Source: Schmidtea nova
Taxonomy: Eukaryota
Assembly: GCA_044892505.1 (NCBI GenBank)
Contig: CM097883.1
Location: 217,620,001 to 217,684,000, forward strand
Direction: 5' to 3'
Length of the DNA stretch: 64,000 nt
In this document: positions 13,229-49,874 of the stretch, one piece after another
Position numbering within the stretch: the stretch's first letter is position 1
How the letters are laid out: each line of letters opens with the position of its first letter
Notes under the pieces: generated by a model
What the model was told of the DNA's origin: nothing
Database searches by the model: none
Seen by the model: the letters and a program-made list of their open reading frames with translations, nothing else
Position numbers and translations under genes: made by a program

Positions 13229-13460
13229 TTAATATCAATAATTCCTATAATGGTAAGACTATAGATCAAAATTTCTTTAAATAAGTACACAATATTTCGG
13301 CACCGCATTTATCAAGTATGTATAAAGGCTGTGTCGAAATATTGTGTACTTATTTAAAGAAATTTTGATCTATAGTCTTACCATTATGGGAATTATTGAT
13401 ATTAATAATAAAAAAGATCAAAGGGGAAACCAAAAGATAATTATGATATTAAGAAAATTA
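13229..13460. repeat. Second palindromic Penelope-type pseudo-LTR pair
   Basis: Arms about 13229-13312 / 13322-13405, followed by the family tail aaagatcaaaggggaaaccaaaagataattatg. Confidence 0.8.
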
Positions 13461-28899: not shown

Positions 28900-30825
28900 T
28901 TACAGAAAGGATTACAGAGATTAGAAAAGATTATAGAAAGTTTGAGGTCACAGGGAACACGACCTAGAAACAGTGTGACTCGCACAAGAATGGTGGATCT
29001 TAAATGTTACAAATGTAATGAACCAGACCACATAGCCCAATTTTGTAAAAAACAAGAATGGATGAAACCAAAAAAAGAACGAATTTGTTATCAGTGCGGA
29101 AAGAAAGGTCACATTTCAGCTAATTGCCGAAGTAATATGAGCGGTGCAAAAAATGGAACGGAATGTTTCGAGTGTGGTGGAGCACACCAAGCTAGATTTT
29201 GCGATAAAAGAAACAAGTTTAGGTATTTACAAGAAGAATGCGAGGAGGATATAAGAACTGAAATCACAGATACAGTAGTTTCCGAAGAACAGGAAAATAA
29301 CTGTGTCGCAATGACAAAGGATAGCTGGGGCGAGCAAAGAACGGTAAAGATGATAAAAAGTCTTGCAACAAAACCAACATTGGAAGAGAAATATGTTAAC
29401 TTTGTCAATGGGTAAGGTAAAACACCAAAGACGCAATTGAGGAAATACGAACCAACGCTGATTTCTTTTAACAAACCTGAGAAGGCCCGATATAAACCAA
29501 TTACAGAATGTGTGATTATAAATCTACCGGTGAAAGTCGTGTTTGATTCAGGAGCAGATCTGAATGTTATAAGTCAAGAGTTTGCGGAAGATATTGTCAA
29601 AGATAACCCAGCAATAAAAGTTTACAATTCAACAACAAACGTAACATGTGCTAATGGAAGTACAGATTTTTCCCAATACCAGCTGCAGAGGATTAAGTTA
29701 AATATTTCAATCTGACCTATATTAACGAGTCATGTTTTTGATATTATGCCTAATATATTTCCACATATTTTTTTAGGACTTAAAAGCATGAAGATACACG
29801 CAAAATATATTGATGCAGCAAATGAAGGACTTTAATTGCAAAGGATTAAATTCCATCTTTATCTAAGACAATCCCTATTTCTTCTTTAAATGAATGACAA
29901 CCGTATGTGGGGGGTCGGAGTGCGGTTGTGAGGAGAGAGGAGGCTCAGCGAGATTATTATTATAGAGTTATTTTATCGAATAATATAGAAATGAGTAATG
30001 CTGGGATGTTGGTTAATGATCGTAGGGAGAAAATTGATGATTTTAATGAGATTTATATATTTGATGGAGAAAGATCGAGGGTGGCAGATCGTGAAATTGT
30101 GATAAGTGACTACGTAGTATAAGGCAAGAAATGGTATTTATTAGTAAAGAATGCATGTAAGAGGGAGGTTCGAAGACTCTGCATACAGAGACCGGCTTGG
30201 GATATTTAGAAAAAAGGAACGAGTTTTTTAATGAATCAAAGGGCACATTGAATAAACTCACGAAAGATGAAAAAATAAAGGACAAGAAAGCAATAGAGAC
30301 AATATGTTTTTTTAAATAGAGGTTAGCTATCTAAGACATATCATAAATAAGTAAGGTGTTAAAACAAATCCACAGTAAATCAAAAGTTTCAGTTCATGGG
30401 AAATTCCAGCACGTAAAAAGAGTTGCAGTCATTTTTGGGATTTTGCAATTACTACAGACTTTTTATTAAAATGTATGCAGAGACTTTAGAGAAATTGAGT
30501 GCGAAGCTAAAAAATGAAAGATGTTTCCAGTGGAATGAGGACAGAAAAGTAGCGTTCTATGAGCTAAAGCGGTTATTGTCAACCCTACCATTGTTGGAAT
30601 TACCATGCAAGAAAGGACAATAATTTTTTAGACAAAGATGCATCACATAATAGCATTGGGGCTATCTTGTCACAAATGCAAGAAGGCAAGTTAAGAGTAC
30701 TATGTTATGTGTCAAAACTATGAGTAAGTGTCAAAGACGGTATTTCATAACAAGGAAAGAACTACTAGCAATTTATACATAAGTGTTAAGATTCTAGCAT
30801 TATCTCCTCGGATCCAAATTTATAG
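28900..30825 (+). mobile_element. Degenerate Ty3/Gypsy gag-pol (zinc knuckles, protease, RT, RNase H)
   Basis: CYKCNEPDHIAQFC, CYQCGKKGHISANC, CFECGGAHQARFC; VVFDSGADLNVIS; LQSFLGFCNYYRLFI; DASHNSIGAILSQ; truncated at HYLLGSKFIV. Confidence 0.9.
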
Positions 30826-30862
30826 TGTTGGGTGGTATGGGTGTGTTATAAAAATTATTAAC
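30826..30862 (-). mobile_element. Left stub of family-B LTR split by the Polinton
   Basis: Reverse complement (gttaat aatttttataacacacccataccacccaaca) matches 10815-10845. Confidence 0.7.
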
Positions 30863-31360
30863 AGTAAGAGGGTGTGAGCCCCCCAGCACAGGATGAGTTA
30901 TCGCGCACCGCCGATTGAAACAAAATATTCAAACCCCCCGGGGGGAGTGGGGGGGTAATTTTTTTGTTTTAATTTTTGATTTTTGATTTTTCGTTTTTTT
31001 CACGTTTTTGCACAGTGCAAATCGATTTTTTCAAATTTTCTCTACGCAGTATGGTGGTGCACAATGTGCTGCACATTTCTATATCTAAAACTTTTTCATT
31101 GGATGCGCCAAGTAACCGATTATTGATTTTTTCAGTTTTTTTTACATTTTAGCACAGTGAGAATAAAAATTTTTAAGTTTTCTCAACGTTGTTGGGTAGA
31201 TCACAATGAGCTGCACATTTTTTGTTTTGGAAACTTTTTTATAGGATGTGCGGAAGGCACCTAAAAACACGTGTGAGCCCCCCAGCACAGGATGAGTTAT
31301 CGCGCACCGCCGATTAAAACAAAGAAATTTTAACCCCCCCGGTGGGGAGAGGGGGGTAAA
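30863..31360 (+). repeat. Polinton terminal/subterminal repeat: two tandem copies of TGTGAGCCCCCCAGCACAGGATGAGTTATCGCGCACCGCCG plus C/G-rich tract
   Basis: Copies at 30873 and 31272 (about 400 bp apart); CCCCCCGGGGGG palindrome and G-runs; mirrored at 48450-48945; independent copy at 49796-49874. Confidence 0.9.
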
Positions 31361-31439
31361 AATGTTTTTGTTTTAATCGTCGAATATTGATTTTGAAAAT
31401 TTTTTTTGTTTAAATGAGCACAGAAGGAGAAATAATAAA

Positions 31440-32600
31440 GTTAAGAGAAAACTTCCAAGACAAAAGTTGTAGATCATATCGAGGCGCACATTTTAGTTTA
31501 AAAGACCTTTTATTTTTCTTAATCCTATGTTCCAAACTCGTGTTCCAATGTCTCGTTTAAAGAAATATACGACTTCTAAAAAAGATGTGAGAAAACTTCC
31601 AAGACAAAAGTCGTAGACAATGACGAGACACATTTTATATTTGCAAAATACTTTCATTTTGGTCAACCCAATGTATCGAAATCTTGTTCAAAGTTTCGTT
31701 TAAAAATACATGTAAAACTCATATTGACTTTAAAGTGCAAATAAAGTGCAAACAAATAATTACGTATAACTTTTTATTAAAAGGTGCTACTATATATTTT
31801 CAAGTGCCAATATCTTTTAAAAAGTTCTGCACATTATTTTAAAGTGCAACTATTGATTTCTAAGTGCTAAAATGTGCAAGATTGTCATTTTTGTGCAGAA
31901 ATCAGAGTTTTTCAATGGGTTACTCAGTTTTTTAGGAGACTTTTGTTGCATCAACTTATGGGGGCAATGTGCCCGGTTATTCCCGTCACATTTTTTGTCT
32001 AAAAAATTTAATTTTTTCTAGATTTTTCAAGATTTTTCTTCAAAAAAAAATTACCATAAAATTTTTTCATGGAAATGAGTTTACGAGTCGATTATCGATC
32101 TCCATTAAACTCAAATTCCTAGTAAACTACTTGACCAATTTCAAGATGATGCATATCATTAGACTCTAAAACATGTGCCTCATCTTTTGATCAAAAAATA
32201 TTTTGTAAAAATATCAATTATAAATAGTTTGTTTTTTCCCAGTGACAGAAACATTATATCAAAATAATTTTTACATCGTTAGACTCATAATCAAATGAGC
32301 TTTGAGCTGATATAAAAACTTTGCAAAATTCTATTGATTTTTATTTTTTCACACACTACACTTTTAGTTTTTCATAGGTGCTCTAAACTATTTTCGTGAA
32401 TATTATACATCATTAGACTCGTAAATAAATTCTTTACAAGAATCTATATATATTTTTTGTGTAAATATTGATTTTTCAGTTTTGCACATTTTGCACCTTG
32501 ACTTTTTTACAAGTTTTATAAATAATTTTCAACATATTTTTACATCATTCAACTCGTAATCGTCTATTCTACAAAATCATGTCATTACTTTTATGAAACT
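31440..32600 (+). repeat. Degenerate subterminal direct repeats
   Basis: gagaaaacttccaagacaaaagt x2; aagtgc motif cluster 31730-31880; catcattagactc-type unit x4 at 32114-32560. Confidence 0.75.
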
Positions 32601-32719
32601 ATTTATTTTCAAAATTTTCAATTTTCATTTACTAATTTTAATTATTTTCAAAATATTTTTACATCAATGTATTCAACAATTAAATAATTTGTAAACATGT
32701 ATTGAAACAAACACAATAA

Positions 32720-33074
32720 TTAGTCGAAACACATGTGATTATAGAGTTCATTAACTAAAGTATTAATAGTCTGTTTTCGTTTGTATTCAATGCATTCTTG
32801 ACAATTGAAAGGACAAACAAGTGTCTTGAGTATTTTGGCTTGCTTTTTGTATCCATATAACATTAATTTATAATGATATATAATACGTTCGACATTGATT
32901 CCAGTGGCTTGATAGATTTTGGTACTAGCAAGTTCTGGAGCACAATTTAATATTTCATCCTTAATCTCAGGATAAATCTGAGCAATTTTATTAATAAGGA
33001 CTTCAATCTGAAATGCTAGACAAAATTAAAATAATGAAGTAAAATTTTTTACCAATATCTGAAACTTGAGACAT
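32720..33074 (-). CDS. Hypothetical 105-aa protein, two exons (37-nt intron 33016-33052); left-arm copy
   Basis: ATG TCT CAA GTT TCA GAT ATT G|gt..ag|CA TTT CAG... splices in frame to MSQVSDIAFQIEVLINKIAQIYPEIKDEILNCAPE...CPFNCQECIEYKRK...HMCFD*. Confidence 0.7.
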
Positions 33075-33112
33075 TGTAAAAAAAATGAAAAGCGTGAAAT
33101 ATTTCTCTGTAT

Positions 33113-33562
33113 TTATAGTTTTTGGGAACTAATCAAATTCTTTATATCTTGAACAATTTTATTTACCATCCAATCAAAGTTGAGAGTTTTTATACCAAGT
33201 ATAACTATTTTTCCACTGGAAAATAAATTTATACATAATGGTTTATAATTACAAAGTCTTAAAGCAGGAAATATTTCTGGTTCATATATGCAATTCGCTT
33301 TCTTTGATAGATAATGTAAATTAATTTTTTCTCCAATATCCACATTAACTGTACATGATTGAAGACGAACATCTTTAATATCATAGTGTATGCTTTCGAG
33401 GGGTTTCTTGCAACTCATTATCCTACATTTACCAGATTTAAAAAATATAATTGTATATTTTTCATTTTTATCTATAATCTGTTGGAGTTTCAATTTTGGA
33501 AATCTCATGTTTTGTACAACTTTCATTGGAACTTGTCCTCTATAATTAATATTAACCAACAT
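33113..33562 (-). CDS. Divergent TATA-binding protein (TBP)-like, 149 aa; left-arm copy
   Basis: Two TBP repeats: LVNINYR, MRFP, IIFFKSGKCRIMSCK; LQSCTVN, YEPEIFPALRL, NLFSSGKIVILGIK. Confidence 0.85.
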   Translation of the reverse strand: MLVNINYRGQVPMKVVQNMRFPKLKLQQIIDKNEKYTIIFFKSGKCRIMSCKKPLESIHYDIKDVRLQSCTVNVDIGEKINLHYLSKKANCIYEPEIFPALRLCNYKPLCINLFSSGKIVILGIKTLNFDWMVNKIVQDIKNLISSQKL

Positions 33563-33718
33563 TTATGAAACTTGTTATTATTTAATTGATATGTTTAAAC
33601 AAATATTTTATTAATTATGTTGTTGTTATGCTTTTGGTTTCTATATCATTTATTAAAAACTAAAGACAATAAATTAAAGACACATCTTTTAAAAATTATA
33701 ATTATTATAACAATACAA

Positions 33719-34237
33719 CTAATTATTAACTCTACCGCTTAAGATCTTGCAAACAGGTAAGATGGCAGAGCTTGGAGCTATCTTGTAACCTTGAATACGG
33801 ACGACCAAGTTCCATTTATAGTTTTCTTTGAAATGTATCTGAGTATTTCCTTCAAAAAGCTTTGTTGATGGACCACCGATAAATGCACCATCTTCACCTA
33901 ATAATAGTTGTTTGTTTATTCTACTAAATAATGTTCTAATTGCCTCTCGATCTTCTAGCTCAAAATCTTCTATCCAGTAATTGTAGCTAGTCTTCACTAA
34001 GGGAACCGGATTTACTAGAATAAAATCTATTGGATTTTTTAATAAGATCATCTTGAAATCGTGGTAAACATATTCGGGTTTGAAGATTGAAATTTCTTCT
34101 TCCTTCTTCAAGGTTTCTTCATTAAACTTCATCTTTTTCTTCATCGAATGTTCACTTGTTTCCTTCATCATCAGCTGAAATAATGAAAAAATATATTTGG
34201 CAAACACATACTTTCTCAAATACATACACATCTGCAT
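33719..34237 (-). CDS. Hypothetical protein (up to 172 aa); left-arm copy
   Basis: Open frame with globular beta-rich C-terminal half; candidate 37-nt GT-AG intron near the 5' end; no family recognised. Confidence 0.65.
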   Translation of the reverse strand: MQMCMYLRKYVFAKYIFSLFQLMMKETSEHSMKKKMKFNEETLKKEEEISIFKPEYVYHDFKMILLKNPIDFILVNPVPLVKTSYNYWIEDFELEDREAIRTLFSRINKQLLLGEDGAFIGGPSTKLFEGNTQIHFKENYKWNLVVRIQGYKIAPSSAILPVCKILSGRVNN

Positions 34238-34661
34238 TTTGATTTGTCTATTTTATTCTATCAACCATTCACATGCATGTTATGTGATCAGTTATTGATA
34301 TGTTATTGATCAGTTTGTTCCGCCTGACTTTATGTGATTTAATAACTTAGATGATGACTTTAAATTTTGAGTCAATTTCCTAAGAAACAATAATAAATCT
34401 ACATTAAAAAGAATAATAGAATTTAAATTAAAAAATTAAGATAAATAAGAAAATTTATGACAATAAAATCTTAATTTTATGATAATAAAGACTTTTATGT
34501 ATTTTTTAGGAAAATTGAACTTTTTTAGGAATTTTTGATTTGTTTAAAATTGTTAATTCTTTAATTTGAGATCCTTGTAAACTTTTTGAAATTTGATTAA
34601 AAATACAATGATGTTTAAATAATTACTGTCATTGAAAAGATAAGTTAACAATAAAATTGAA

Positions 34662-35675
34662 ATGAATCCAGATTTAATCTCTAAGTACTTTAAAAAGTTT
34701 GTCAGTTATATTCCAACGGTTTTTGAATCATATGATACATCAAGAGTTATCATTTTGCAATTTGCTCTATCTGGTCTCGATTTGTTAAATCGCATTGATG
34801 ATCTCTCGCAATCAGATAAAAATGAAATAGTTGACTGGATTTATGAGCTGCAAATATTAAATTATCAATCTGGCCGTTTAGAGGGATTTCGAGGTGGATT
34901 TTTCCCGAGTAATTGTCATCTCACAAACCAGATTTACATGTCTGGTCATGTAACGATGAATTATTCGTGTTTAGTTTGTTTGATGATTTTGGGTGATAAT
35001 CTTAGTCGAGTCGATAAAACTGGCATTTTAAAATGTTTTAAAAATTTGCAAAATTCTGAAGATGGCTGTTTTTGTGCGGCTCTTGACTGCCCAGAAGCAG
35101 ACGTGAGATTTATATTTTCTGCTTTAGCTTCATGTGCAATTATAAACGATTTCAGCATAGTAGATGTTAATGCTGTTGTGTCGTTTATTTTGAAATGTCA
35201 AGATTATGATGGTGGGTTTGGTCAGAGACCTCGTGAAGAAAGTCACAGTGGCTCCACCTATTGTGCAATAGCAAGTTTAAAGATTCTGTCAAAATTAGAT
35301 GTTTTGTTCCCTGAAAATTCTAGTAAAAGGAATTTAATGCTTCGGTGGTTAATAAATCGTCAGTACGAAGGACTTCATGGAAGACCGCATAAGGACGACG
35401 ATAGTTGTTATACATTTTGGATAGGAGCCTCATTGAAAATGCTTGGCTATGGACATTTAATAAATTTCCCTTCTTTGTTCGATTTCATTGAGTCTACTTA
35501 TGAAAATCTGGCCGGTGGATTTTGTAAATTGAAGAACTTGGGACATTCATTTGGTGATATCTATGAGATCGTTGTGAAAAATGCCGAAACTCTAGACAAT
35601 GCTATTGATTATTCCGGATTTGAAACGTTGAAAAGGTCTTATCCTTTAAGAATTGCTGACAAGGTCGTAGAATGA
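34662..35675 (+). CDS. PGGT1B: Geranylgeranyltransferase type I beta subunit-like, C-terminally replaced by RNR alpha-derived sequence; left-arm copy
   Basis: YDTSRVIILQFALSGLDLL, GHVTMNYSCL..L.ILGDNLSRVD, EADVRFIFSA, CQDYDGGFGQ...ESHSGSTYCAIASL, GRPHKDDDSCYTFWIGASLKMLG, GGFCK; afterwards DIYEIVVKNAETLDNAIDYSGFETLKRSYPLRIADKVVE (RRM1-like). Confidence 0.9.
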   Translation: MNPDLISKYFKKFVSYIPTVFESYDTSRVIILQFALSGLDLLNRIDDLSQSDKNEIVDWIYELQILNYQSGRLEGFRGGFFPSNCHLTNQIYMSGHVTMNYSCLVCLMILGDNLSRVDKTGILKCFKNLQNSEDGCFCAALDCPEADVRFIFSALASCAIINDFSIVDVNAVVSFILKCQDYDGGFGQRPREESHSGSTYCAIASLKILSKLDVLFPENSSKRNLMLRWLINRQYEGLHGRPHKDDDSCYTFWIGASLKMLGYGHLINFPSLFDFIESTYENLAGGFCKLKNLGHSFGDIYEIVVKNAETLDNAIDYSGFETLKRSYPLRIADKVVE

Positions 35676-35891
35676 CCACAACACAGGTTCGTGAGAGCAG
35701 CTGTTGGAATATACAAGGATGATATTGAAAGTGCAATTGAGACTTTTAACTTAATGTCAGAAAAATGGTTCATACACGCTTCACCCATAGTGTTTAATGC
35801 AGAATTGAGATATGGACAACCTTCCAGTTGTTTTCTACTGATAATGAAAGATGACTGCCTTTCTAAATCGAAGCAACAACATGCATGTTAG
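35532..35891 (+). pseudogene. RRM1: Ribonucleotide reductase large subunit fragment; left-arm copy
   Basis: Same frame across one TGA (35673-35675): [46 protein letters not shown]...[12 protein letters not shown]; truncated both sides. Confidence 0.9.
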
Positions 35892-35955
35892 TATATTACA
35901 ACATCCAATCAGTATTATACATAAACATGTGTGTATTTCATAATATTTTGCATTA

Positions 35956-36408
35956 ATGTCTTTTATGGAAGATTATATAGCAACAATTATTCATGAATTG
36001 CTTTTTGGAAGCGAAGATAAAGTAGTTCAATGTTTGAATTGTATGTTACTTGAAGCTGAGTATCATTGTACTATTGATTTCTCTCCAATATTAAAACCAA
36101 GAACAGATATTGAAAAGGAGAAAGCATTCAAAAATGTCTTTGACTCATTATTTGAAGATGGTATCCGTTGGTCTAAAGTTATTACAATTTTTTTGTACAT
36201 TCGAAAAATTCTTATTTTATGTCCAACTGAACATCAGAAATATTTGAAATGGTCAGTACAAGAAATTCTCAAAATTTATCCATGGATCAAAGAAAACGGA
36301 GACTGGGAATATGTTATTAAATTACAATTAAAATATGGTTTTAATTTGATTATTAAATGTTTAAGTATTTGTATTATATATTTAATAAAATTTTATCAAC
36401 TTTATTAA
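35956..36408 (+). CDS. Bcl-2 family protein, 150 aa; left-arm copy
   Basis: BH1-like FKNVFDSLFEDGIRWSKVITIFLY, BH2-like PWIKENGDWEYV, hydrophobic C-terminal tail. Confidence 0.82.
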   Translation: MSFMEDYIATIIHELLFGSEDKVVQCLNCMLLEAEYHCTIDFSPILKPRTDIEKEKAFKNVFDSLFEDGIRWSKVITIFLYIRKILILCPTEHQKYLKWSVQEILKIYPWIKENGDWEYVIKLQLKYGFNLIIKCLSICIIYLIKFYQLY

Positions 36409-36411
36409 TAA

Positions 36412-36885
36412 TTTTTAAACACAAAACATTTATTTAACAATTTACCAAACTTTATTCTTGTAATATTTCAATCGGAAGCTCAATATAATAGTTCATATGC
36501 AGAAACGAGTTCAAAATTTAACCATTTTAGTATAACTTCAATAACTTTGTCGAAACACTCTGATTATCGTGAAACATATACGCAAGATTTTGACAAAGAT
36601 AATTATGCTGTAACTTATATGCAATCTATTGTACGAAATATGGGTTATTTAGACAAGAATTTAAATTGTGGAATAGATCTTGTAGACTTTAAAAGTAAAT
36701 ACCCCTTCTTTACATTTGTGTTGGCTCCCAACTGTGATTGGAATCAATCACAGTTACCTCAAAATGGAAATTTAAGACTTGATATTAAATTCAACAAGGC
36801 TCTTACATCTCCTGCATATGTAATAATTTATGGTGTTTTTGAGAGTGAAATCCAGATCTCCTCAAATCGAACTATTTTAGTGTAA
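36412..36885 (+). pseudogene. 3' part of Polinton major capsid protein (double jelly-roll), 5'-truncated at the duplication junction
   Basis: LFNNLPNFILVIFQSEAQYNSSY...KFNHFSI...YPFFTFVLAP...QNGNLRLDIKFNKALTSPAYVIIYGVFESEIQISSNRTILV; no start codon. Confidence 0.8.
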
Positions 36886-36916
36886 ACAAAGTTGTTGATT
36901 AATATTATTTCGAAAT

Positions 36917-37302
36917 ATGGAGTAAGTTCGTTTTGTTACTATTAATTTTACTAATGTAGTTCTATTCAGCTTAATAGAATTGCAACAAATTTATTTGAAT
37001 ATAATTTTTTGGGAGTTTATCCATTAGATAAAATTCCTTTTCTAAACGATAACAAAGCCATCATTGTCAATACACAATCATCAAGTCTTGAAGGAGAACA
37101 TTGGCTAGCCATCTATATGACCAGAGGAAAGATTCATGTGTTTGACCCTATGGGTTATTATTATCCATCATTCTTGGTATCGAAGCTCTCAAAATTATCA
37201 AAACCAATTGTTTACAACAGAAATAGATATCAAGATCTATTTACAATTATTTGCGGACAATATTGTATTGTTTGGTTATATTATATGTTTAATAAATGTT
37301 AA
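36917..37302 (+). CDS. Adenain-like cysteine protease (Polinton PRO), join(36917..36921,36960..37302), 115 aa
   Basis: ATG GA|gtaagt...taatgtag|T TCT gives MDSIQLNRIATNLFEYNFLGVYPLDKIP...GEHWLA...FDPMG...QDLFTIICGQYC (His, Asp, Gln, Cys catalytic set). Confidence 0.9.
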
Positions 37303-37425
37303 TTATTTGGTGTATGACTTTTATTTTCAAAAATAACTAAAATAACTCGTTTGTTTTTATAACTTTTAATAAAATAACATTTAAACAACTTTAGCAATAA
37401 CAACAACAACAAGAATGTAAAATTG

Positions 37426-40400
37426 TTATTCCGATAAATATTGGTCTGAATCGCTTGATACAAAACTTGGGGAATGCTCCGTTGATGATTGTTGTTGTTG
37501 TTGGTCAGGAAAGTCACTTTTAGTATTAATATTATTATTTATAACACTTTCCTCAGAAATTACTACAGAATAATGCCCATAAGCTAGACTCTTGTTCCTC
37601 CCCACCCAAACCCTTTTATCATCGTTGTTAGTTAATGCGACTTTATTTGTTTTAAATGTTAACAGCTGATGATTTTTAGTACCGATTCTAATTTGTGGGA
37701 CTTTTGGAATTATCATTCCATTATAACAGTCCAAATATGACTGATGATTTATTATAGTCTGTCCCAACCGAATACCTTTTGCTTTTAACGTTTGTTTCTT
37801 TGGACCTCCCAAGAGACTATATAACTTTGGACGAAGGAAAACCCATTCTTTATATTTGATTCCTTTACTTTCGTCCTTAAATTTTCCCACAACTGATGCC
37901 AAATCTCTATTGAATAATGGATGGGAGGAATCATAGTTTGAAGTGTCCAAGAGTTTGTCCTTTATCATTTCTCTTAATAAAACTTCCAGGTTTAAATTCT
38001 TTACCTCCAAAAAGAATGAGTCAGTGTCTCCAGCTACAATATTAATTTCACAATTGAATTGTTCCCTATACTTTCGCAAATCATTATATTGCAGTTGGTA
38101 CATTCTTAGTTTGGATAAATCCAAGACTGTTTGACCAATATATGTTGGTCTATCCAAACATACAATTTCCTGATTCAACAGAGCAGCTATTAGGTTGTCA
38201 GCAATTTTGAAGCTTTTCTTGAACCCAGGTATAGATGCATATGTCACCATTTTCTTCTGGGTATTACATAGACGTAAATTTATTCGTTTCTTCAAATTTT
38301 CCACCGTTTTGCCATAGAAGCTATTGTTGATTAGCTTATAATAATCTTTATCTAATTCTGTCAAGGAAGCAGCTCGTAATTTTGTATTGTTGTCGATATA
38401 ATTTTTAAATATTTGTCCTTGTTTGAATTTAATTGCTCTATGAACCTTTGTTACTTGAACACCCAACATCAGGAAAAACTTCAACAATCTCCAATGAATC
38501 ACATAATTCTTCTTTGAATAATGTGTTAATAAAAGTTTAGGAACCTTTGATTCAGAGGGGCACATTTTCTCAGCTGATGCAGGCAAATCATCTATTAAAT
38601 CGTGAATCTCATCAGGAATTTCCAAATCCACCTCCATTGTAAATCCGTAATTGAGTTTTTCCAGCTCCAATGTTTGACAATCTTCCAAGACTTTATCTAG
38701 ATTGTCATGAACCCATTTGAATTCTCCGCATGGCAGACTTTGACAGAGTGCCCAACCATATAGATTATTTATGTCTATATAAAGCAAATCAGTATTTTCA
38801 TCAGTTTTCACATGATGTTTGTTGACAAATGTAAGTCCCCCTCTAATTCCACCTTCATAATAATTGTACATTTCATAATCTGTCAACAATTCAATAGGAC
38901 TATCCAGTGTTAAAAGTCCAGAAGCCCAAGACATTCCCGGTATTCCAAAGAAATTCAAAGGTTCCAAACCATTATGTGCTAATGATTTGGCTCGAAATTG
39001 TTCAAAATAGTCTGCCAATAGATATACGTCTAACTTCATGTATATCATCATGTAATCCAACAATGTCTCGCAGCTATTCTCTCTCCATATATTCTTGGCT
39101 TTTTCATATTCGTCTTCAGTCACTCCAGTCCATATTGGAGGCAATTCAAAAGTTTCTTGAAGTATTTCCAAACTCTTTGCGAAGTCAAATGGAAATATAC
39201 CCTTTGAGTCTACAATTGATGCTTGGAATACCGAATTTGTTATGGGTAAGCTTATCAAAGTCTTCACTGCTCCAGCTAAAGATTCATTTATAAACTGGTA
39301 TGAATCTATGAATTTTATTGTCATTTTCTTGTAATGAGCGATAAGTGTGAGAAATTTCTCACATGTTGTAGGAATACAACTTATGCTCCAATTACGAAAT
39401 TTATTTATTCCGTATTTTAAAATATGATGCATATCATAACCCTTGAGGTTATGAAATACAACTGGTAGGGTTCTTCTAATTCTTCGTGAGAGATTGCATC
39501 TATTGCAAGCTGCTCCTAAGTACTTTCCACTAAAATGGTTGTGATCTCGAACCAAATTATTAGGGGTTTTGTGACATATGTAACAGGAAGTTGCTCTATT
39601 AAATGAAATCTGTTGATCACGATTAATCACCATTAATGTATTACTATGTTCCACGTAATATTGTAATACTTTAGTCTGTGAAATTTCCTCCACTTTCTTA
39701 AGAAAATCAAAGACACAGTCATGTCCAATAAATTGATGATATTCTTTACTTCCTGAATAGTTATTTACCAATAAAAGTCCAGCTGAAATTGGTAAATGTT
39801 TTTGGTAGTGTTGCTCATCCTCTGGTAAGACTGATTCAAAATCCGCATAGATGACATATGGCGGTAATCAATTTTGACCAATCTATATTTGTTTGTAGGA
39901 GTTATGTATAATGTGGTTCCTATTTGATTTTTTTACATAGATCTACATGTCTGTCAAATGCTAATGGTCTTCGAAAACCGTTAAGACAATTAGGGCACCA
40001 TTTGCATTGAATTCTCGTCGGACAATCTTCGTTTTCATGAAAATTCATCAGCCTATTTAGATTTGGAACAGCTGTGTAGTGATAATTTCCATTTTCTTCC
40101 AACAAAAGCAAATATATTGGGTTAATATCTTTTACTTTTGTTTTATGAATAATATCTAGATGTGGATGTTTCATAAGCACATCATCTTCCACCGAGAAAT
40201 TATCTGCCTCGTACGATAATACGTTAATAGCTATCCCGGGATTTTGGGCTTCAAATTTCCGAATATCTTTCAGTTTTGTAGGCACTTTTTCCCTATCGAA
40301 CCTTAGTTCTGATAAGTATTGTGTATATTGTGACGGTCTATTTCTGTTGCTGTTTATTACATCATATTTTAATAATGATAAAACACTATAAATAAAACAT

Positions 40401-41569
40401 AGGTTATCATTATTCCTTACATTGATCAGTTTGCCTTTGAGATTTATTGGAGTATTAATAAATCTATGTCCTGGCAATCTACTTATCTCTGCATACTTTG
40501 TTACTTTAAAGTTGATTTCCAATATACGGTTCAAATGCCAACTACTTCCCATCGTAGTTCTTATTGTTATTTTTTCATTTAGGGATTGTATACCCTCCTC
40601 CAGAAAGTTTGGTGACATCTCCACAGCACGATTTGAGAGTCTTGCAGTCCTGATCTCTCCATCTTTAACGAATTCTGCGTTTATACCAAATTGTACCTTA
40701 CCTTTTTTCAATTCGGATAGACAAACTTTTAGTTTTGTTTTTAAAGAAACAGGAATAATTATTTCTTGTACATTATAACCTGAAATGTCCAAGGAAATAA
40801 TTTGATGTGATCTATATAAGTCACATTCAATTTCGGGTTCCTTATCTATTCCTGTTCCAGTTTGAATAAATGTTTCATCCATTAAAGAGTAGCTATCTGC
40901 ATACTCTGTAGATTCACTTTCGGTATAAAAATCTGTTATCTCATCCACTAATTCAAAATTTAGCCAATCTTCTAGAATTGGTTCCTCTTGATTTCCAACA
41001 TTTTCTTCTTCTTCTTCTTCTTCTTGTCCATCTTGTCCATCTTCTGCTTCGGAATCTGTGATTAAAATACAATCTTCTCCTCGGTTTCCTGAATTGTCCA
41101 TTTCTTGAATCACCTCTTCAGAATCTTCTTCTTCTTCGGAATCGATGATTAAAATATAATCTTGTTGTTGTTGTTGGTGAATTTCTTCTCCTTGGTGTCC
41201 CATATCCTCCATTTCTTGAATCGCCTCTTCAGAATGTTGTTTGGAATTGGCAACATCATTTGTTTCTTGAATCGATACTTCTTCTTGTTGTTGTTGTTGT
41301 CATTGTTGTTGATTTGTTTCTTCACAAACGTTGATCTGATCCAAATCAACGTTGACATTATTTTCTAAACGCCGACATATTTTATTATTATTATATATAA
41401 TAATTGGAGCTTTTCTTTTAAAAAGCTTCTTTTTACTTTCATTAAATAGGGTTAAGTGTCGCATATGATTTTTATAAAAGGTAAGGTATGGGTCGGAACT
41501 TAGAGTCTGGCAAAATGGACATATATAGTATATTTCCTGGAAATATGTTATTTTATAATAAAGTTCCAT
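37426..41569 (-). pseudogene. polB: Protein-primed family B DNA polymerase (pPolB) with endonuclease VII-like insert, disrupted
   Basis: YADFES, RDHNHFSGKYLGAACNRCNL, VFHNLKGYD, FIDSY, KGIFP, GIRGG, YIDINNLYGWAL, KLINNSFYGK, GDTDS, GKFKDE, LRPKLYS; ORFs 41300-41569 and 39920-41212 are in frame across one TGA; frameshifts between 39920 and 39867. Confidence 0.95.
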
Positions 41570-42103
41570 TATTTGGTGACAGTTGGAACTGTGTATTGCA
41601 TTGTTATAATACCTCGGATATAATAAACCTTAATGTTATTTTAAAATTAATTTAATTTATATTCTAAATATTTATATATATTTTTTTATGAGAGAACATT
41701 AGTAATATAAACTTCCTAGAAAAAAAAATAATAGTTATTTTGTGTATCTATTAAAAGTTTTTAATCTAAAGATTACTGTAATAATTACTTAAAATAACTA
41801 TTATTTTGGATCTATTTTTCATATTTATATGAATATATAATTCCTTGTTGTTAGTGTACATAAATGAATAAAAATTTTATGAATTTACATAGGTATTCAC
41901 GTTGTTAGTATACATAGCAATAAAAATTTATTTATAATTTTTTTTAAATTAGCAATTTTATTTTTGTTAAAAACAATATTTTCCATACTTGTATGATTTT
42001 AATGTTTAAAAAAAAATAAAACAATAATTTTTTTTAAAATTTGATATTCTAATTAATAATATAATATTTTAAAATAATTTTTGTGTCAAAAAACAATAAT
42101 TTT

Positions 42104-42545
42104 TGTTGTTAGTGTTCCTAACAACAAATTTTATACATTAAATATTAATAATTCCCATAATGTTAAGACTATAGATCAAATTATCTTTAAATAAGTACAC
42201 AATATTTCGGCCCAGCTTTTATCATAGATGAAACAAAAGATTATTATGACATTAAAATTATAAAAATAATTTTTTATATATTACTAAAGGTGAATAAATT
42301 TGTTGTTAGGTACTATTGTTGTTAGTGTTCCTAACAACTAATTTTATACATTAAATATTAATAATTTCCCATAATGTTAAGACTAGATCAAATTATTTTT
42401 AAATAAGTACACAATATTTTGACATAGCCTTTATCATGGGTGAAACAAAAGATTATAATGACATTAAATATTATAAAAATAATTTTTAAAAATTACTGAA
42501 GATGAATAAATTTTGTTGTTAGTGTCCCTAACAACAAATTTTATT
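42104..42545 (-). repeat. About 200-bp tandem repeat (2 units plus start of a third) containing Penelope-type pseudo-LTR with degenerate hammerhead core
   Basis: ttgttgttagtgt(t/c)cctaacaac hairpin at 42104, 42317, 42514; each unit carries ataattcccataatgttaagactatagatc...gtacacaatattt. Confidence 0.8.
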
Positions 42546-43123
42546 CAACTATTATTAAATTAAAAATAATATAAAAATAATTTACTATTTTAGATGATTA
42601 TATTTTGTTAACTTCACTATCAACACTGATAGTTAACTTCAACAAAATACAATCATCTAAAATCTGAAATCTTAAATAAAAAAAAATTTACATTTATCCT
42701 TTGAATTAAAATTTCAAGCATTCTGAAATTTTTAAAAAAAAAGTAATAAAAACTTATATTTGGTTAATATATTAATATTACCATTTGTTTCGTAGTATTA
42801 TCTTTTGAATTGACTTGCTTCTTTTGTCTCTGCATCATTTCTGTAAAGAATAATTATAAAAAATGAAATAAAAATATAAAATAAACCTTACTTCTTTGAA
42901 TAAATTTCTTATTATAAATTTAAATAGATTTTTAAAATTAAATTTAAATAGTGAATTAAAACAAACAGTTTATAATTAGTTATCGTTAATAGGCAACTAA
43001 ACAATTATTGTTATTAAGCAACTAGAATATTCTAGAATATTCTAGAATGAATTTATGTAACTAAGATTTCATAAACAACTATAAACGATAACTCATTGTC
43101 GATAATTATTATTTATATAGATC

Positions 43124-43341
43124 ATGGATGATATAGATGGTAACCTTTGAATATTTGAAACAAAATTTATTATAAAGATTTGTTTTTAGAAATTATATAC
43201 AAAGAGGAACAAATAGAACCTGAAGAAAGTATAATTGATGATTCTAATGATATATTTGAGTTATCAAGTCAAGAACCAATTATAATTTTGCCGAGTAAAA
43301 ATACGGAAACTTTGTTCCAAGATATTAAGAATTTAAAGTAG
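43124..43341 (+). CDS. Small acidic 55-aa protein, join(43124..43139,43190..43341)
   Basis: ATG GAT GAT ATA GAT G|gtaacc...ttttag|AA ATT (50-nt intron) gives MDDIDEIIYKEEQIEPEESIIDDSNDIFELSSQEPIIILPSKNTETLFQDIKNLK*. Confidence 0.55.
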
Positions 43342-43400
43342 AAAACTGCATGTTTTTGTCAAGATTATTTGTTAAATAAATGTTTTGTGTTTAAAAATTA

Positions 43401-43853
43401 TTAATAAAGTTGATAAAATTTTATTAAATATATAATACAAATACTTAAACATTTAATAATCAAATTAAAACCATATTTTAATTGTAATTTAATAACATAT
43501 TCCCAGTCTCCGTTTTCTTTGATCCATGGATAAATTTTGAGAATTTCTTGTACTGACCATTTCAAATATTTCTGATGTTCAGTTGGACATAAAATAAGAA
43601 TTTTTCGAATGTACAAAAAAATTGTAATAACTTTAGACCAACGGATACCATCTTCAAATAATGAGTCAAAGACATTTTTGAATGCTTTCTCCTTTTCAAT
43701 ATCTGTTCTTGGTTTTAATATTGGAGAGAAATCAATAGTACAATGATACTCAGCTTCAAGTAACATACAATTCAAACATTGAACTACTTTATCTTCGCTT
43801 CCAAAAAGCAATTCATGAATAATTGTTGCTATATAATCTTCCATAAAAGACAT
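43401..43853 (-). CDS. Bcl-2 family protein; right-arm copy
   Basis: Identical translation to 35956-36408. Confidence 0.82.
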   Translation of the reverse strand: MSFMEDYIATIIHELLFGSEDKVVQCLNCMLLEAEYHCTIDFSPILKPRTDIEKEKAFKNVFDSLFEDGIRWSKVITIFLYIRKILILCPTEHQKYLKWSVQEILKIYPWIKENGDWEYVIKLQLKYGFNLIIKCLSICIIYLIKFYQLY

Positions 43854-43917
43854 TAATGCAAAATATTATGAAATACACACATGTTTATGTATAATACTGA
43901 TTGGATGTTGTAATATA

Positions 43918-44277
43918 CTAACATGCATGTTGTTGCTTCGATTTAGAAAGGCAGTCATCTTTCATTATCAGTAGAAAACAACTGGAAGGTTGTCCATATC
44001 TCAATTCTGCATTAAACACTATGGGTGAAGCGTGTATGAACCATTTTTCTGACATTAAGTTAAAAGTCTCAATTGCACTTTCAATATCATCCTTGTATAT
44101 TCCAACAGCTGCTCTCACGAACCTGTGTTGTGGTCATTCTACGACCTTGTCAGCAATTCTTAAAGGATAAGACCTTTTCAACGTTTCAAATCCGGAATAA
44201 TCAATAGCATTGTCTAGAGTTTCGGCATTTTTCACAACGATCTCATAGATATCACCAAATGAATGTCCCAAGTTCTT
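43918..44277 (-). pseudogene. RRM1: RNR large subunit fragment; right-arm copy
   Basis: Mirror of 35532-35891. Confidence 0.9.
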
Positions 44278-45147
44278 CAATTTACAAAATCCACCGGCCA
44301 GATTTTCATAAGTAGACTCAATGAAATCGAACAAAGAAGGGAAATTTAATAAATGTCCATAGCCAAGCATTTTCAATGAGGCTCCTATCCAAAATGTATA
44401 ACAACTATCGTCGTCCTTATGCGGTCTTCCATGAAGTCCTTCGTACTGACGATTTATTAACCACCGAAGCATTAAATTCCTTTTACTAGAATTTTCAGGG
44501 AACAAAACATCTAATTTTGACAGAATCTTTAAACTTGCTATTGCACAATAGGTGGAGCCACTGTGACTTTCTTCACGAGGTCTCTGACCAAACCCACCAT
44601 CATAATCTTGACATTTCAAAATAAACGACACAACAGCATTAACATCTACTATGCTGAAATCGTTTATAATTGCACATGAAGCTAAAGCAGAAAATATAAA
44701 TCTCACGTCTGCTTCTGGGCAGTCAAGAGCCGCACAAAAACAGCCATCTTCAGAATTTTGCAAATTTTTAAAACATTTTAAAATGCCAGTTTTATCGACT
44801 CGACTAAGATTATCACCCAAAATCATCAAACAAACTAAACACGAATAATTCATCGTTACATGACCAGACATGTAAATCTGGTTTGTGAGATGACAATTAC
44901 TCGGGAAAAATCCACCTCGAAATCCCTCTAAACGGCCAGATTGATAATTTAATATTTGCAGCTCATAAATCCAGTCAACTATTTCATTTTTATCTGATTG
45001 CGAGAGATCATCAATGCGATTTAACAAATCGAGACCAGATAGAGCAAATTGCAAAATGATAACTCTTGATGTATCATATGATTCAAAAACCGTTGGAATA
45101 TAACTGACAAACTTTTTAAAGTACTTAGAGATTAAATCTGGATTCAT
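44134..45147 (-). CDS. PGGT1B: GGTase-I beta/RNR chimera; right-arm copy
   Basis: Mirror of 34662-35675 with one I/L difference. Confidence 0.9.
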   Translation of the reverse strand: MNPDLISKYFKKFVSYIPTVFESYDTSRVIILQFALSGLDLLNRIDDLSQSDKNEIVDWIYELQILNYQSGRLEGFRGGFFPSNCHLTNQIYMSGHVTMNYSCLVCLMILGDNLSRVDKTGILKCFKNLQNSEDGCFCAALDCPEADVRFIFSALASCAIINDFSIVDVNAVVSFILKCQDYDGGFGQRPREESHSGSTYCAIASLKILSKLDVLFPENSSKRNLMLRWLINRQYEGLHGRPHKDDDSCYTFWIGASLKMLGYGHLLNFPSLFDFIESTYENLAGGFCKLKNLGHSFGDIYEIVVKNAETLDNAIDYSGFETLKRSYPLRIADKVVE

Positions 45148-45571
45148 TTCAATTTTATTGTTAACTTATCTTTTCAATGACAGTAATTATTTAAACATCA
45201 TTGTATTTTTAATCAAATTTCAAAAAGTTTACAAGGATCTCAAATTAAAGAATTAACAATTTTAAACAAATCAAAAATTCCTAAAAAAGTTCAATTTTCC
45301 TAAAAAATACATAAAAGTCTTTATTATCATAAAATTAAGATTTTATTGTCATAAATTTTCTTATTTATCTTAATTTTTTAATTTAAATTCTATTATTCTT
45401 TTTAATGTAGATTTATTATTGTTTCTTAGGAAATTGACTCAAAATTTAAAGTCATCATCTAAGTTATTAAATCACATAAAGTCAGGCGGAACAAACTGAT
45501 CAATAACATATCAATAACTGATCACATAACATGCATGTGAATGGTTGATAGAATAAAATAGACAAATCAAA

Positions 45572-46090
45572 ATGCAGATGTGTATGTATTTGAGAAAGTA
45601 TGTGTTTGCCAAATATATTTTTTCATTATTTCAGCTGATGATGAAGGAAACAAGTGAACATTCGATGAAGAAAAAGATGAAGTTTAATGAAGAAACCTTG
45701 AAGAAGGAAGAAGAAATTTCAATCTTCAAACCCGAATATGTTTACCACGATTTCAAGATGATCTTATTAAAAAATCCAATAGATTTTATTCTAGTAAATC
45801 CGGTTCCCTTAGTGAAGACTAGCTACAATTACTGGATAGAAGATTTTGAGCTAGAAGATCGAGAGGCAATTAGAACATTATTTAGTAGAATAAACAAACA
45901 ACTATTATTAGGTGAAGATGGTGCATTTATCGGTGGTCCATCAACAAAGCTTTTTGAAGGAAATACTCAGATACATTTCAAAGAAAACTATAAATGGAAC
46001 TTGGTCGTCCGTATTCAAGGTTACAAGATAGCTCCAAGCTCTGCCATCTTACCTGTTTGCAAGATCTTAAGCGGTAGAGTTAATAATTAG
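45572..46090 (+). CDS. Hypothetical protein; right-arm copy
   Basis: Mirror of 33719-34237; candidate intron 45598-45634. Confidence 0.65.
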   Translation: MQMCMYLRKYVFAKYIFSLFQLMMKETSEHSMKKKMKFNEETLKKEEEISIFKPEYVYHDFKMILLKNPIDFILVNPVPLVKTSYNYWIEDFELEDREAIRTLFSRINKQLLLGEDGAFIGGPSTKLFEGNTQIHFKENYKWNLVVRIQGYKIAPSSAILPVCKILSGRVNN

Positions 46091-46246
46091 TTGTATTGTT
46101 ATAATAATTATAATTTTTAAAAGATGTGTCTTTAATTTATTGTCTTTAGTTTTTAATAAATGATATAGAAACCAAAAGCATAACAACAACATAATTAATA
46201 AAATATTTGTTTAAACATATCAATTAAATAATAACAAGTTTCATAA

Positions 46247-46696
46247 ATGTTGGTTAATATTAATTATAGAGGACAAGTTCCAATGAAAGTTGTACAAAAC
46301 ATGAGATTTCCAAAATTGAAACTCCAACAGATTATAGATAAAAATGAAAAATATACAATTATATTTTTTAAATCTGGTAAATGTAGGATAATGAGTTGCA
46401 AGAAACCCCTCGAAAGCATACACTATGATATTAAAGATGTTCGTCTTCAATCATGTACAGTTAATGTGGATATTGGAGAAAAAATTAATTTACATTATCT
46501 ATCAAAGAAAGCGAATTGCATATATGAACCAGAAATATTTCCTGCTTTAAGACTTTGTAATTATAAACCATTATGTATAAATTTATTTTCCAGTGGAAAA
46601 ATAGTTATACTTGGTATAAAAACTCTCAACTTTGATTGGATGGTAAATAAAATTGTTCAAGATATAAAGAATTTGATTAGTTCCCAAAAACTATAA
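46247..46696 (+). CDS. Divergent TBP-like protein; right-arm copy
   Basis: Mirror of 33113-33562. Confidence 0.85.
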   Translation: MLVNINYRGQVPMKVVQNMRFPKLKLQQIIDKNEKYTIIFFKSGKCRIMSCKKPLESIHYDIKDVRLQSCTVNVDIGEKINLHYLSKKANCIYEPEIFPALRLCNYKPLCINLFSSGKIVILGIKTLNFDWMVNKIVQDIKNLISSQKL

Positions 46697-46734
46697 ATAC
46701 AGAGAAATATTTCACGCTTTTCATTTTTTTTACA

Positions 46735-47089
46735 ATGTCTCAAGTTTCAGATATTGGTAAAAAATTTTACTTCATTATTTTAATTTTGTCTAGCATTTCA
46801 GATTGAAGTCCTTATTAATAAAATTGCTCAGATTTATCCTGAGATTAAGGATGAAATATTAAATTGTGCTCCAGAACTTGCTAGTACCAAAATCTATCAA
46901 GCCACTGGAATCAATGTCGAACGTATTATATATCATTATAAATTAATGTTATATGGATACAAAAAGCAAGCCAAAATACTCAAGACACTTGTTTGTCCTT
47001 TCAATTGTCAAGAATGCATTGAATACAAACGAAAACAGACTATTAATACTTTAGTTAATGAACTCTATAATCACATGTGTTTCGACTAA
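46735..47089 (+). CDS. Hypothetical 105-aa spliced protein; right-arm copy, join(46735..46756,46794..47089)
   Basis: 37-nt GT-AG intron; 318 nt coding, in frame. Confidence 0.7.
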
Positions 47090-49795
47090 TTATTGTGTTT
47101 GTTTCAATACATGTTTACAAATTATTTAATTGTTGAATACATTGATGTAAAAATATTTTGAAAATAATTAAAATTAGTAAATGAAAATTGAAAATTTTGA
47201 AAATAAATAGTTTCATAAAAGTAATGACATGATTTTGTAGAATAGACGATTACGAGTTGAATGATGTAAAAATATGTTGAAAATTATTTATAAAACTTGT
47301 AAAAAAGTCAAGGTGCAAAATGTGCAAAACTGAAAAATCAATATTTACACAAAAAATATATATAGATTCTTGTAAAGAATTTATTTACGAGTCTAATGAT
47401 GTATAATATTCACGAAAATAGTTTAGAGCACCTATGAAAAACTAAAAGTGTAGTGTGTGAAAAAATAAAAATCAATAGAATTTTGCAAAGTTTTTATATC
47501 AGCTCAAAGCTCATTTGATTATGAGTCTAACGATGTAAAAATTATTTTGATATAATGTTTCTGTCACTGGGAAAAAACAAACTATTTATAATTGATATTT
47601 TTACAAAATATTTTTTGATCAAAAGATGAGGCACATGTTTTAGAGTCTAATGATATGCATCATCTTGAAATTGGTCAAGTAGTTTACTAGGAATTTGAGT
47701 TTAATGGAGATCGATAATCGACTCGTAAACTCATTTCCATGAAAAAATTTTATGGTAATTTTTTTTTGAAGAAAAATCTTGAAAAATCTAGAAAAAATTA
47801 AATTTTTTAGACAAAAAATGTGACGGGAATAACCGGGCACATTGCCCCCATAAGTTGATGCAACAAAAGTCTCCTAAAAAACTGAGTAACCCATTGAAAA
47901 ACTCTGATTTCTGCACAAAAATGACAATCTTGCACATTTTAGCACTTAGAAATCAATAGTTGCACTTTAAAATAATGTGCAGAACTTTTTAAAACATATT
48001 GGCACTTGAAAATATATAGTAGCACCTTTTAATAAAAAGTTATACGTAATTATTTGTTTGCACTTTATTTGCACTTTAAAGTCAATATGAGTTTTACATG
48101 TATTTTTAAACGAAACTTTGAACAAGATTTCGATACATTGGGTTGACCAAAATGAAAGTATTTTGCAAATATAAAATGTGTCTCGTCATTGTCTACGACT
48201 TTTGTCTTGGAAGTTTTCTCACATCTTTTTTAGAAGTCGTATATTTCTTTAAACGAGACATTGGAACACGAGTTTGGAACATAGGATTAAGAAAAATAAA
48301 AGGTCTTTTAAACTAAAATGTGCGCCTCGATATGATCTACAACTTTTGTCTTGGAAGTTTTCTCTTAACTTTATTATTTCTCCTTCTGTGCTCATTTAAA
48401 CAAAAAAAATTTTCAAAATCAATATTCGACGATTAAAACAAAAACATTTTTACCCCCCTCTCCCCACCGGGGGGGTTAAAATTTCTTTGTTTTAATCGGC
48501 GGTGCGCGATAACTCATCCTGTGCTGGGGGGCTCACACGTGTTTTTAGGTGCCTTCCGCACATCCTATAAAAAAGTTTCCAAAACAAAAAATGTGCAGCT
48601 CATTGTGATCTACCCAACAACGTTGAGAAAACTTAAAAATTTTTATTCTCACTGTGCTAAAATGTAAAAAAAACTGAAAAAATCAATAATCGGTTACTTG
48701 GCGCATCCAATGAAAAAGTTTTAGATATAGAAATGTGCAGCACATTGTGCACCACCATACTGCGTAGAGAAAATTTGAAAAAATCGATTTGCACTGTGCA
48801 AAAACGTGAAAAAAACGAAAAATCAAAAATCAAAAATTAAAACAAAAAAATTACCCCCCACTCCCCCCGGGGGGTTTGAATATTTTGTTTCAATCGGCGG
48901 TGCGCGATAACTCATCCTGTGCTGGGGGGCTCACACCCTCTTACTGTTAATAATTTTTATAACACACCCATACCACCCAACACTATAAATTTGGATCCGA
49001 GGAGATAATGCTAGAATCTTAACACTTATGTATAAATTGCTAGTAGTTCTTTCCTTGTTATGAAATACCGTCTTTGACACTTACTCATAGTTTTGACACA
49101 TAACATAGTACTCTTAACTTGCCTTCTTGCATTTGTGACAAGATAGCCCCAATGCTATTATGTGATGCATCTTTGTCTAAAAAATTATTGTCCTTTCTTG
49201 CATGGTAATTCCAACAATGGTAGGGTTGACAATAACCGCTTTAGCTCATAGAACGCTACTTTTCTGTCCTCATTCCACTGGAAACATCTTTCATTTTTTA
49301 GCTTCGCACTCAATTTCTCTAAAGTCTCTGCATACATTTTAATAAAAAGTCTGTAGTAATTGCAAAATCCCAAAAATGACTGCAACTCTTTTTACGTGCT
49401 GGAATTTCCCATGAACTGAAACTTTTGATTTACTGTGGATTTATTTTAACACCTTACTTATTTATGATATGTCTTAGATAGCTAACCTCTATTTAAAAAA
49501 ACATATTGTCTCTATTGCTTTCTTGTCCTTTATTTTTTCATCTTTCGTGAGTTTATTCAATGTGCCCTTTGATTCATTAAAAAACTCGTTCCTTTTTTCT
49601 AAATATCCCAAGCCGGTCTCTGTATGCAGAGTCTTCGAACCTCCCTCTTACATGCATTCTTTACTAATAAATACCATTTCTTGCCTTATACTACGTAGTC
49701 ACTTATCACAATTTCACGATCTGCCACCCTCGATCTTTCTCCATCAAATATATAAATCTCATTAAAATCATCAATTTTCTCCCTACGATCATTAA

Positions 49796-49874
49796 CCGGG
49801 GGGTTTGAATATTTTGTTTTAATCGGCGGTACGCGATAACTCATCCTGTGCTGGGGGGCTCACATCCCCCTACT
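49796..49874 (-). repeat. True right terminal inverted repeat of the Polinton (last 79 bp)
   Basis: Differs from left TIR at several positions (e.g. ggcggtacgcg vs ggcggtgcgcg), ends in TACT followed by TSD. Confidence 0.85.

Follow-up and report, generated by a model that had tools for sequence, protein, structure and literature searches.

The window analysed here, a stretch of Schmidtea nova DNA of 64,000 nucleotides (nt) on whose numbering all coordinates are given, contains at 30863..48945 a defective copy of a Maverick/Polinton element. The genes for its protease, its DNA polymerase and two small proteins are interrupted by short GT-AG segments, which are likely to be spliceosomal introns inherited within one Maverick clade. 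A preliminary description, made from the window sequence, had reported virus-like genes with short introns immediately after the start codon, and it was supported in this respect; the position and phase of the protease intron are conserved among relatives. The present finding is broader, with further introns predicted in the polymerase leader and in the integrase of sister families.

The four GT..AG segments that had been proposed as introns were all located, with lengths of 38, 37, 50 and 37 nt, and the first three yield in-frame coding sequences as claimed. The protease gene begins at ATG 36917, has a first exon of 5 nt, is split in phase 2 and remains open for 113 codons past the acceptor. 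The gene for a 105-amino-acid (105-aa) protein begins at ATG 46735 with an exon of 22 nt (phase 1; 97 codons open past the acceptor), and the gene for an acidic 55-aa protein begins at ATG 43124 with an exon of 16 nt (phase 1; 49 codons open). Each of the three segments provides the sole start codon nearby for its open frame, and GT..YAG ends together with restoration of the frame upon removal were found for these three and for the polymerase introns described below. The expectation by chance was estimated from random positions that were rescued by an ATG, an exon of ≤30 nt, and a 30-60-nt GT..YAG intron. Such rescue occurred at 0.3-0.7% of positions with a GT[AG]A donor and at 1.9-3.6% with any GT. 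Because these rates are low, three rescues among the element's frames (approximately 12) are improbable by chance, with a probability of ~7e-5 for the GT[AG]A donor or ~8e-3 for any GT.

The protease gene (36917..37302, forward strand) encodes an adenain-type maturation cysteine protease, as indicated by a Peptidase_C5 match above the cut-off (E value 4e-5) and by the catalytic motifs (H46, D62, and C98) in exon 2. Its 38-nt phase-2 intron (36922..36959, forward strand) is strongly supported by conservation in copies of the same family, in other families, and in metagenome contigs. ATG, GT, and AG were all retained in 37 of the 44 aligned copies of the window's family (family 1); the ATG was lost in five copies and a splice site in two. 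Three further families in this genome contained a phase-2 protease intron after ATG plus two bases, with lengths of 36-37, 41-42, and 39 nt, and the inner sequences of these introns were unrelated among families. A metagenome scan for the protease recovered 41 loci, 17 of which matched the protein from residue 1 at 45-52% identity. The intron was present in 14 of these 17 (37-47 nt), and the 14 contigs represent approximately eight distinct lineages, several being near-copies. Two of the 17 (L160 and L164) were intronless and had an in-frame ATG exactly at the spliced position, and one had no upstream sequence. In the six more distant loci that were inspected, the protease starts without an intron (L171 was ambiguous, and 17 others fell outside the inspection). 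Exactly two residues precede the aligned Ser in the intronless L160 and L164 and in the database proteins P0004, P0006, and P0008, as in the spliced form M-X-S. A scan of viral contigs with the protease alignment gave 18 pattern matches, none of which was confirmed.

A capsid tree of 20 rows, from which near-copies, L067, and L171 were left out, grouped all 13 intron-bearing rows and the intronless L160 into a clade of 14 rows with 100/100 support, and the six rows outside this clade were all intronless. L160 may represent either an intron loss or a sister of the clade. The protease intron is old and clade-wide and therefore does not represent a local adaptation. A single gain close to the clade's base is likely for it, and the other introns would have been gained or lost family by family; they would persist because the element copies DNA to DNA with no RNA step. 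The claim that standard calling of open reading frames (ORFs) truncates such genes was borne out by database proteins P0001-P0003, which were called through or inside the intron and have N-termini translated from intron-like sequence.

The 105-aa gene (46735..47089, forward strand; mirror 32720-33074) encodes a helical protein with conserved Cys and His, the structure model of which has a predicted local distance difference test (pLDDT) score of 79.5. Its 37-nt phase-1 intron (46757..46793, forward strand) is well supported by introns at the aligned site in two families, as homologues at ~25% amino acid identity have a phase-1 intron there of 49 nt (three family-2 copies) or 51 nt (L063). Two other homologues, L087 (family 3) and P0130, are intronless and have N-termini of matching length. 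The search of this protein against 1.84 billion representatives gave two matches, of which only P0130 was useful, and no Pfam, Atlas, BFVD, or PDB fold match was obtained. The acidic gene (43124..43341, forward strand) with its 50-nt phase-1 intron (43140-43189) is moderately supported by sister arms. Fourteen of the 20 arms fetched could be aligned; the ATG and donor were kept in all 14 and the acceptor in 13, and many sisters showed an in-frame expansion of exon 2.

The fourth segment (45598..45634, forward strand; 37 nt) had been proposed as an intron behind a coding first exon, with one TAG in the spliced frame from ATG 45541. That TAG was found, at 45559, and it recurs in 20 of 20 sister arms; the coding frame is not restored, and the segment was rejected as an intron of this kind. 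It may be an intron in the 5' untranslated region (UTR) of a 150-aa gene (45638-46090), because the acceptor lies 3 nt upstream of ATG 45638. The family-2 homologue of the 150-aa gene begins at Met and has no intron at this site. Atlas matches of the 150-aa protein, all below 0.9, were discarded. Both this segment and the 105-aa-gene intron are present twice in the window (mirrors at 34175-34211 and 33016-33052, respectively) because 30011-36440 and 43369-49797 form an inverted repeat.

It is very improbable that the segments are never spliced, being instead AT-rich spacers or chance GT-AG pairs with translation from non-AUG or downstream starts. The rescue of 2-4% of positions by any GT would be consistent with this explanation, as would the failure of the coding-exon reading of the fourth segment, for which an alternative unspliced in-frame ATG exists at 45578 in 19 of 20 sisters. 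However, GT and AG are fixed at one codon position across proteins that are 45-62% identical, the lengths shift by non-multiples of three, and presence and absence are precise in comparison with intronless homologues. Furthermore, the first Met in protease exon 2 falls downstream of the catalytic His.

Three introns that were absent from the preliminary description are predicted in the leader of the DNA polymerase gene (37426..42838, reverse strand). This gene encodes a family B polymerase (pPolB) with an Endonuclease VII domain, as indicated by the Pol A, B, and C motifs and by Endonuclease_7, and is broken at three places in the window copy. The predicted introns are a 51-nt intron in the 5'-UTR (42841..42891, reverse strand), which comes from sequence prediction; a 59-nt phase-0 intron (42723..42781, reverse strand), which is indicated by lengths in sister arms; and a 1063-nt phase-1 intron (41629..42691, reverse strand), which is indicated by a phase-1 acceptor before a conserved N-terminal motif. 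The counterpart of the 59-nt intron measured 57-58 nt in four sister arms from three elements, and the following exon was open and varied only by 6 nt. In all four families no Met was found upstream of the conserved N-terminal motif, a phase-1 AG was present there, and in two of the four the matching phase-1 donors were 0.33 kb and 2.1-2.2 kb away. The polymerase of L160 has an intronless start, and its residue at this point is the junction residue predicted by splicing. A position and phase that stay fixed while length and sequence drift, with precise absence in homologues, were observed for the protease intron, the 105-aa-gene intron, and the long polymerase intron. A spliced leader may end in AUG, and spliced-leader trans-splicing was considered as the origin of the polymerase start; it was rejected, as the acceptor is in phase 1 and cis donors exist. 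The window polymerase appears to be of a divergent type because it had no match to PF03175 or to PDB sequences.

The polymerase leader of family 2 contained five introns, of which four measured 44-47 nt and the fifth 333-336 nt; one of the five copies was without one short unit. Tandemly duplicated exon-plus-intron units were seen in this leader at L069:950-1400 and in other family-2 copies, and such duplication is a visible route of intron gain. In family 3 the leader contained a 2.1-2.2-kb intron with nested opposite-strand genes; at L088:5967-8197 these nested genes showed, by eye, GT-AG introns of ~44 and 51 nt. The long polymerase intron of the window includes an imperfect 260-bp tandem duplication (42103-42558), and a portion of this duplication is similar to a palindromic, dispersed repeat found at 13228-13413. 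In the integrase, an intron of 43-44 nt was present in six copies from families 2 and 3 (its acceptor was mutated in one of them); the family-1 integrase had none. The introns of the element would thus be mostly, not exclusively, located at the 5' end, because the integrase and a 151-aa-like gene of the sister families have internal ones.

Host intron lengths were predicted at 30 host loci, to which myosin proteins were aligned with a custom spliced aligner, and the reference therefore describes myosin genes only. Among 91 predicted introns, 46 had well-aligned flanks, and 38 of these were ≤100 nt. The 38 short introns ranged from 39 to 62 nt with a median of 50.5, and a single one was ≤40 nt. 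The 43-59-nt introns of the element lie within this predicted range, and those of 37-38 nt lie just below it. The suggestion that the element is adapted to a host with very short introns was only partly upheld: the 50-nt intron is at the host mode, whereas those of 37-38 nt are at or below the lower edge and the protease intron is clade-wide. Flatworm microintrons are similar in size, and the available parts of the sources describe a 37-nt peak with 5'-biased, clustered introns in a liver fluke (PMC6530080) and a 45-85-nt peak in a planarian (PMC13594981), near the host introns measured here. In contrast to the present introns, these microintrons sit in host genes, and the comparison is an analogy only.

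The host spliceosome would remove the introns from nuclear RNA polymerase II transcripts, and since the first exon is tiny and ends shortly after the start codon, translation into protein would require the spliced message. Removal of this kind, after nuclear transcription, is very likely, and three considerations weigh against it: the window copy, being broken, may be silent; the 37-38-nt introns, shorter than all 38 short host introns predicted, may splice poorly; and no homologue of the acidic gene was found beyond its own family. Because of this last point, support for the acidic-gene intron is within-family only and this intron is the weakest supported of the three. As to what the introns are for, there is roughly an even prospect that they provide host-like mRNA processing, export, or tolerance, or escape from silencing, by analogy with the silencing that intronless DNA is said to undergo. 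That they are of no benefit is unlikely.

The introns could also be real and, as the preliminary description suggested, act as a regulatory gate, in which splicing of the first intron times or limits the production of protease and polymerase and its retention leaves a 2-residue product. The start codon is isolated in a micro-exon, the introns are at the low edge of host lengths, and adenovirus genes are regulated by splicing according to the available part of PMC7851563; all of these would suit a gate. The unspliced protease frame of the window also meets a stop at codon 3, as do all 14 intron-bearing metagenome contigs with their phase-2 GT[AG]A donor. This stop, however, is an inevitable result of any phase-2 donor with the consensus sequence. 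A gate is likewise not favored by the existence of intronless relatives inside the clade (L160, L164, and L087), by donors that are close to the consensus, or by the internal introns of the integrase and 151-aa-like gene, and a regulated switch is considered unlikely and ranks below a use in mRNA processing.

At the sister loci, genes for the ATPase, rve integrase, and capsids were found together with AG..CT termini and target duplications of 6 bp, and the element is assigned on its sequence features to the Maverick/Polinton family. Terminal inverted repeats (TIRs) with AG..CT ends are present. The copy in the window represents one palindromic half ('type A'), the one with the polymerase, and is bounded by inner terminal motifs at 30863-30878 and 48930-48945. 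Its left arm (30011..36440, reverse strand) mirrors its right arm (43369..49797, forward strand), beyond which an additional terminal motif occurs at 49859-49874; the repeat is 6430 bp long with 99.94% identity and four differences. This copy has no rve integrase, no ATPase, only a remnant of the major capsid gene, and a polymerase with three breaks, and it is a non-autonomous derivative, not a complete member of the family, because rve integrase is absent. The integrase is present in the other half of the family and in families 2 and 3. The other half also showed a Pox_A32 match and weak matches of the double jelly-roll (DJR)-like type; its minor capsid gene is presumably that, a label which we take from gene order. 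No evident target duplication was found for the window copy, and its left outer end is missing. Outside the inner terminal motif, a segment of approximately 850 bp recurs as mirror copies at both ends (30011-30862 and 48946-49797), and beyond the right-hand copy lies a second terminus of 77 bp (49798-49874); the mirrored segment may be flanking sequence taken up at a previous insertion site.

For the most part, the family appears to have spread in the form of two palindromic halves that have their termini in common. The first would comprise the polymerase and accessory genes, as in the window copy, and the other the ATPase, integrase, capsids, and protease; each was likely born by template switching during strand-displacement replication and moved in trans. 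Family-1 polymerase matches were taken as those of at least 84% identity, which were 81 of the best 150 listed. Among the matches listed, the 105-aa gene flanked both sides in 48 of 81, the ATPase was in ancestral order in 8 of 81 (one counted in both classes), and 26 were partial. At least 39 clusters of inverted ATPase pairs without polymerase were found among the matches listed. Halves outnumber ancestral-order loci by ~10:1 among the matches listed, their gene contents are complementary, and their modal sizes are tight (~14.2 and 14.7 kb). The two half types share termini, have sizes of 14.7-15.0 and 13.8-14.3 kb, and in many cases retain long open frames. Ten elements were tried for their ends; both ends were found in nine, and seven of these nine, including both half types, were flanked by perfect 6-bp target duplications. 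One internal junction was common to 20 of 45 protease loci, the junction of the window was common to five others, and one type-A junction reused a type-B breakpoint.

An assembly artefact could in principle produce so long an inverted repeat, given the near-identity of the arms and the lack of a clear target duplication in the window copy. This is extremely improbable, because the shared junctions (20 of 45 loci, and the five others) are dispersed and lie in differing flanking sequence, sisters show target duplications, and the arms of sister copies differ by 0.04-1.1%. Both kinds of half were integrated whole; the one with the polymerase would therefore have had to borrow integrase, and the other likely borrowed polymerase. 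The idea that this Maverick clade is now fully nuclear and spliced like adenoviruses, with old introns in its protease and polymerase, and that the family has split into a bipartite integrated virus with mutual maintenance of its replication and capsid/integration halves in trans, is tentative. The two-half reading as such is weakened by the 56 ATPase matches that stand alone among the matches listed and by the hand-chosen loci L031-L050, which make the junction counts differ from a random sample; moreover, the functions that a half lacks may have come from full-length copies and not from the other half, because some ancestral-order loci are 97-98% identical. Slightly better than even is the case for real introns in halves that are mere defective passengers, copied and integrated by full-length elements with no mutual complementation. 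The eight listed polymerase matches in ancestral order agree with this, as do families 2 and 3, which keep both modules in one element. On the other hand, the excess of halves among the matches listed, their complementary gene content, tight modal sizes and many long open frames, and the type-A junction at a type-B breakpoint are not what mere passengers would lead one to expect.

Other genes of the window copy include the 3' remnant of the major capsid gene (36441..36885, forward strand), which covers ~residues 274-420 and is 94% identical to the 420-aa capsid ORF of a sister. The TBP-like gene (46247..46696, forward strand; mirror 33113-33562; PF00352, E value 2e-15) has no visible intron and has homologues in families 2 and 3; it is retained in families 1-3 and in the distant metagenomic relative L167. 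The Bcl-2-like gene (43401..43865, reverse strand; mirror 35944-36408; PF00452, E value 1e-7) also occurs in sister copies. Both arms contain a 1604-bp inserted repeat (43928..45531, reverse strand), likely a solo long terminal repeat (LTR), with TGTT..AACA ends and a 4-bp duplication. It includes intronless geranylgeranyl-transferase-like (prenyltransferase) and ribonucleotide-reductase pieces and has at least 139 matches in the genome, many as same-strand pairs ~6 kb apart, which suggests that it is the LTR of a retroelement that captured host mRNA fragments. The prenyltransferase and ribonucleotide reductase were considered as Maverick cargo and rejected, as they belong to this separate dispersed repeat. 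One arm was copied from the other after the LTR-like insertion, because the repeat is present in both arms and in no sister examined.

The genome assembly (1.25 Gb, AT-rich) contained at least 150 protease matches. A third Maverick family (rows of 75-77% identity; L086-L094) was represented by at least 69 matches to the polymerase, in many of which the open frame has about 1400 codons; its elements combine the two modules and contain two minor-capsid-like genes in tandem. Decayed retrotransposon pieces (reverse transcriptase-RNase H, zinc knuckle, and DUF7047) flank the window element at 24632-25478, 28858-29415, and 60405-62158, and a 1181-codon open frame with DUF4550 at 16199-19744 (reverse strand) is likely a host gene exon.

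Maverick core genes have been described as intronless in the available parts of PMC8097293 and bioRxiv 2022.07.12.499685, a descriptive trait that does not hold here. The closest known group is the Eupolintoviridae (formerly adintoviruses) of vertebrates and nematodes, which likewise have pPolB, rve integrase, packaging ATPase, adenain protease, major and minor capsid genes, AG..CT termini, 6-bp target duplications, and lengths of 14-18 kb, and, as far as the available part of PMC8502044 goes, Bcl-2 accessory genes. In contrast to the gene-bearing 4-7-kb arms found here, the TIRs described for them are 100-1500 bp (bioRxiv 2023.08.22.554363). Polinton-like viruses of dinoflagellates that were invaded by introners also contain spliceosomal-type introns in integrated elements, but according to the available part of PMC12166617 these are young, transposon-derived, and mostly post-integration, whereas the positions here are fixed across deeply diverged lineages. 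In its available part, PMC12220804 deals with group I introns only, and those of PMC11296320, PMC5718144, and PMC6431247 contain nothing on conserved Maverick introns or halves. Segmented bidnaviruses have segments with common termini (PMC8502044, in part). Unlike those segments and copy-back genomes, both halves here are integrated, heritable, and amplified to dozens of copies. In linear DNA viruses, copy-back or snap-back defective genomes are palindromic halves with both ends from one arm. Adenoviruses have a related polymerase and protease and, in contrast to this element, do not integrate. In their E2B genes, the coding sequences of polymerase and terminal protein begin in a small upstream exon that is joined over a long intron; to our knowledge, the adenovirus protease is not split after codon 1. 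No published account was found in which core genes of animal Mavericks have conserved spliceosomal introns, or in which Mavericks occur as palindromic halves that complement each other, with most subscription papers and Repbase outside reach.

Surveys of Mavericks screen for intact intronless ORFs, and a spliced clade would be scored as degraded or overlooked; proteins of this clade are already mis-started in databases. Comparing families for the presence or absence of these introns gives a concise history of how introns were gained and lost in one lineage of DNA viruses, and the two amplified halves offer a natural case for the origin of segmented viral genomes. Conserved introns in core genes would imply nuclear transcription and host splicing, and this is relevant to the question of whether a cytoplasmic helper virus is required by Mavericks of animals.

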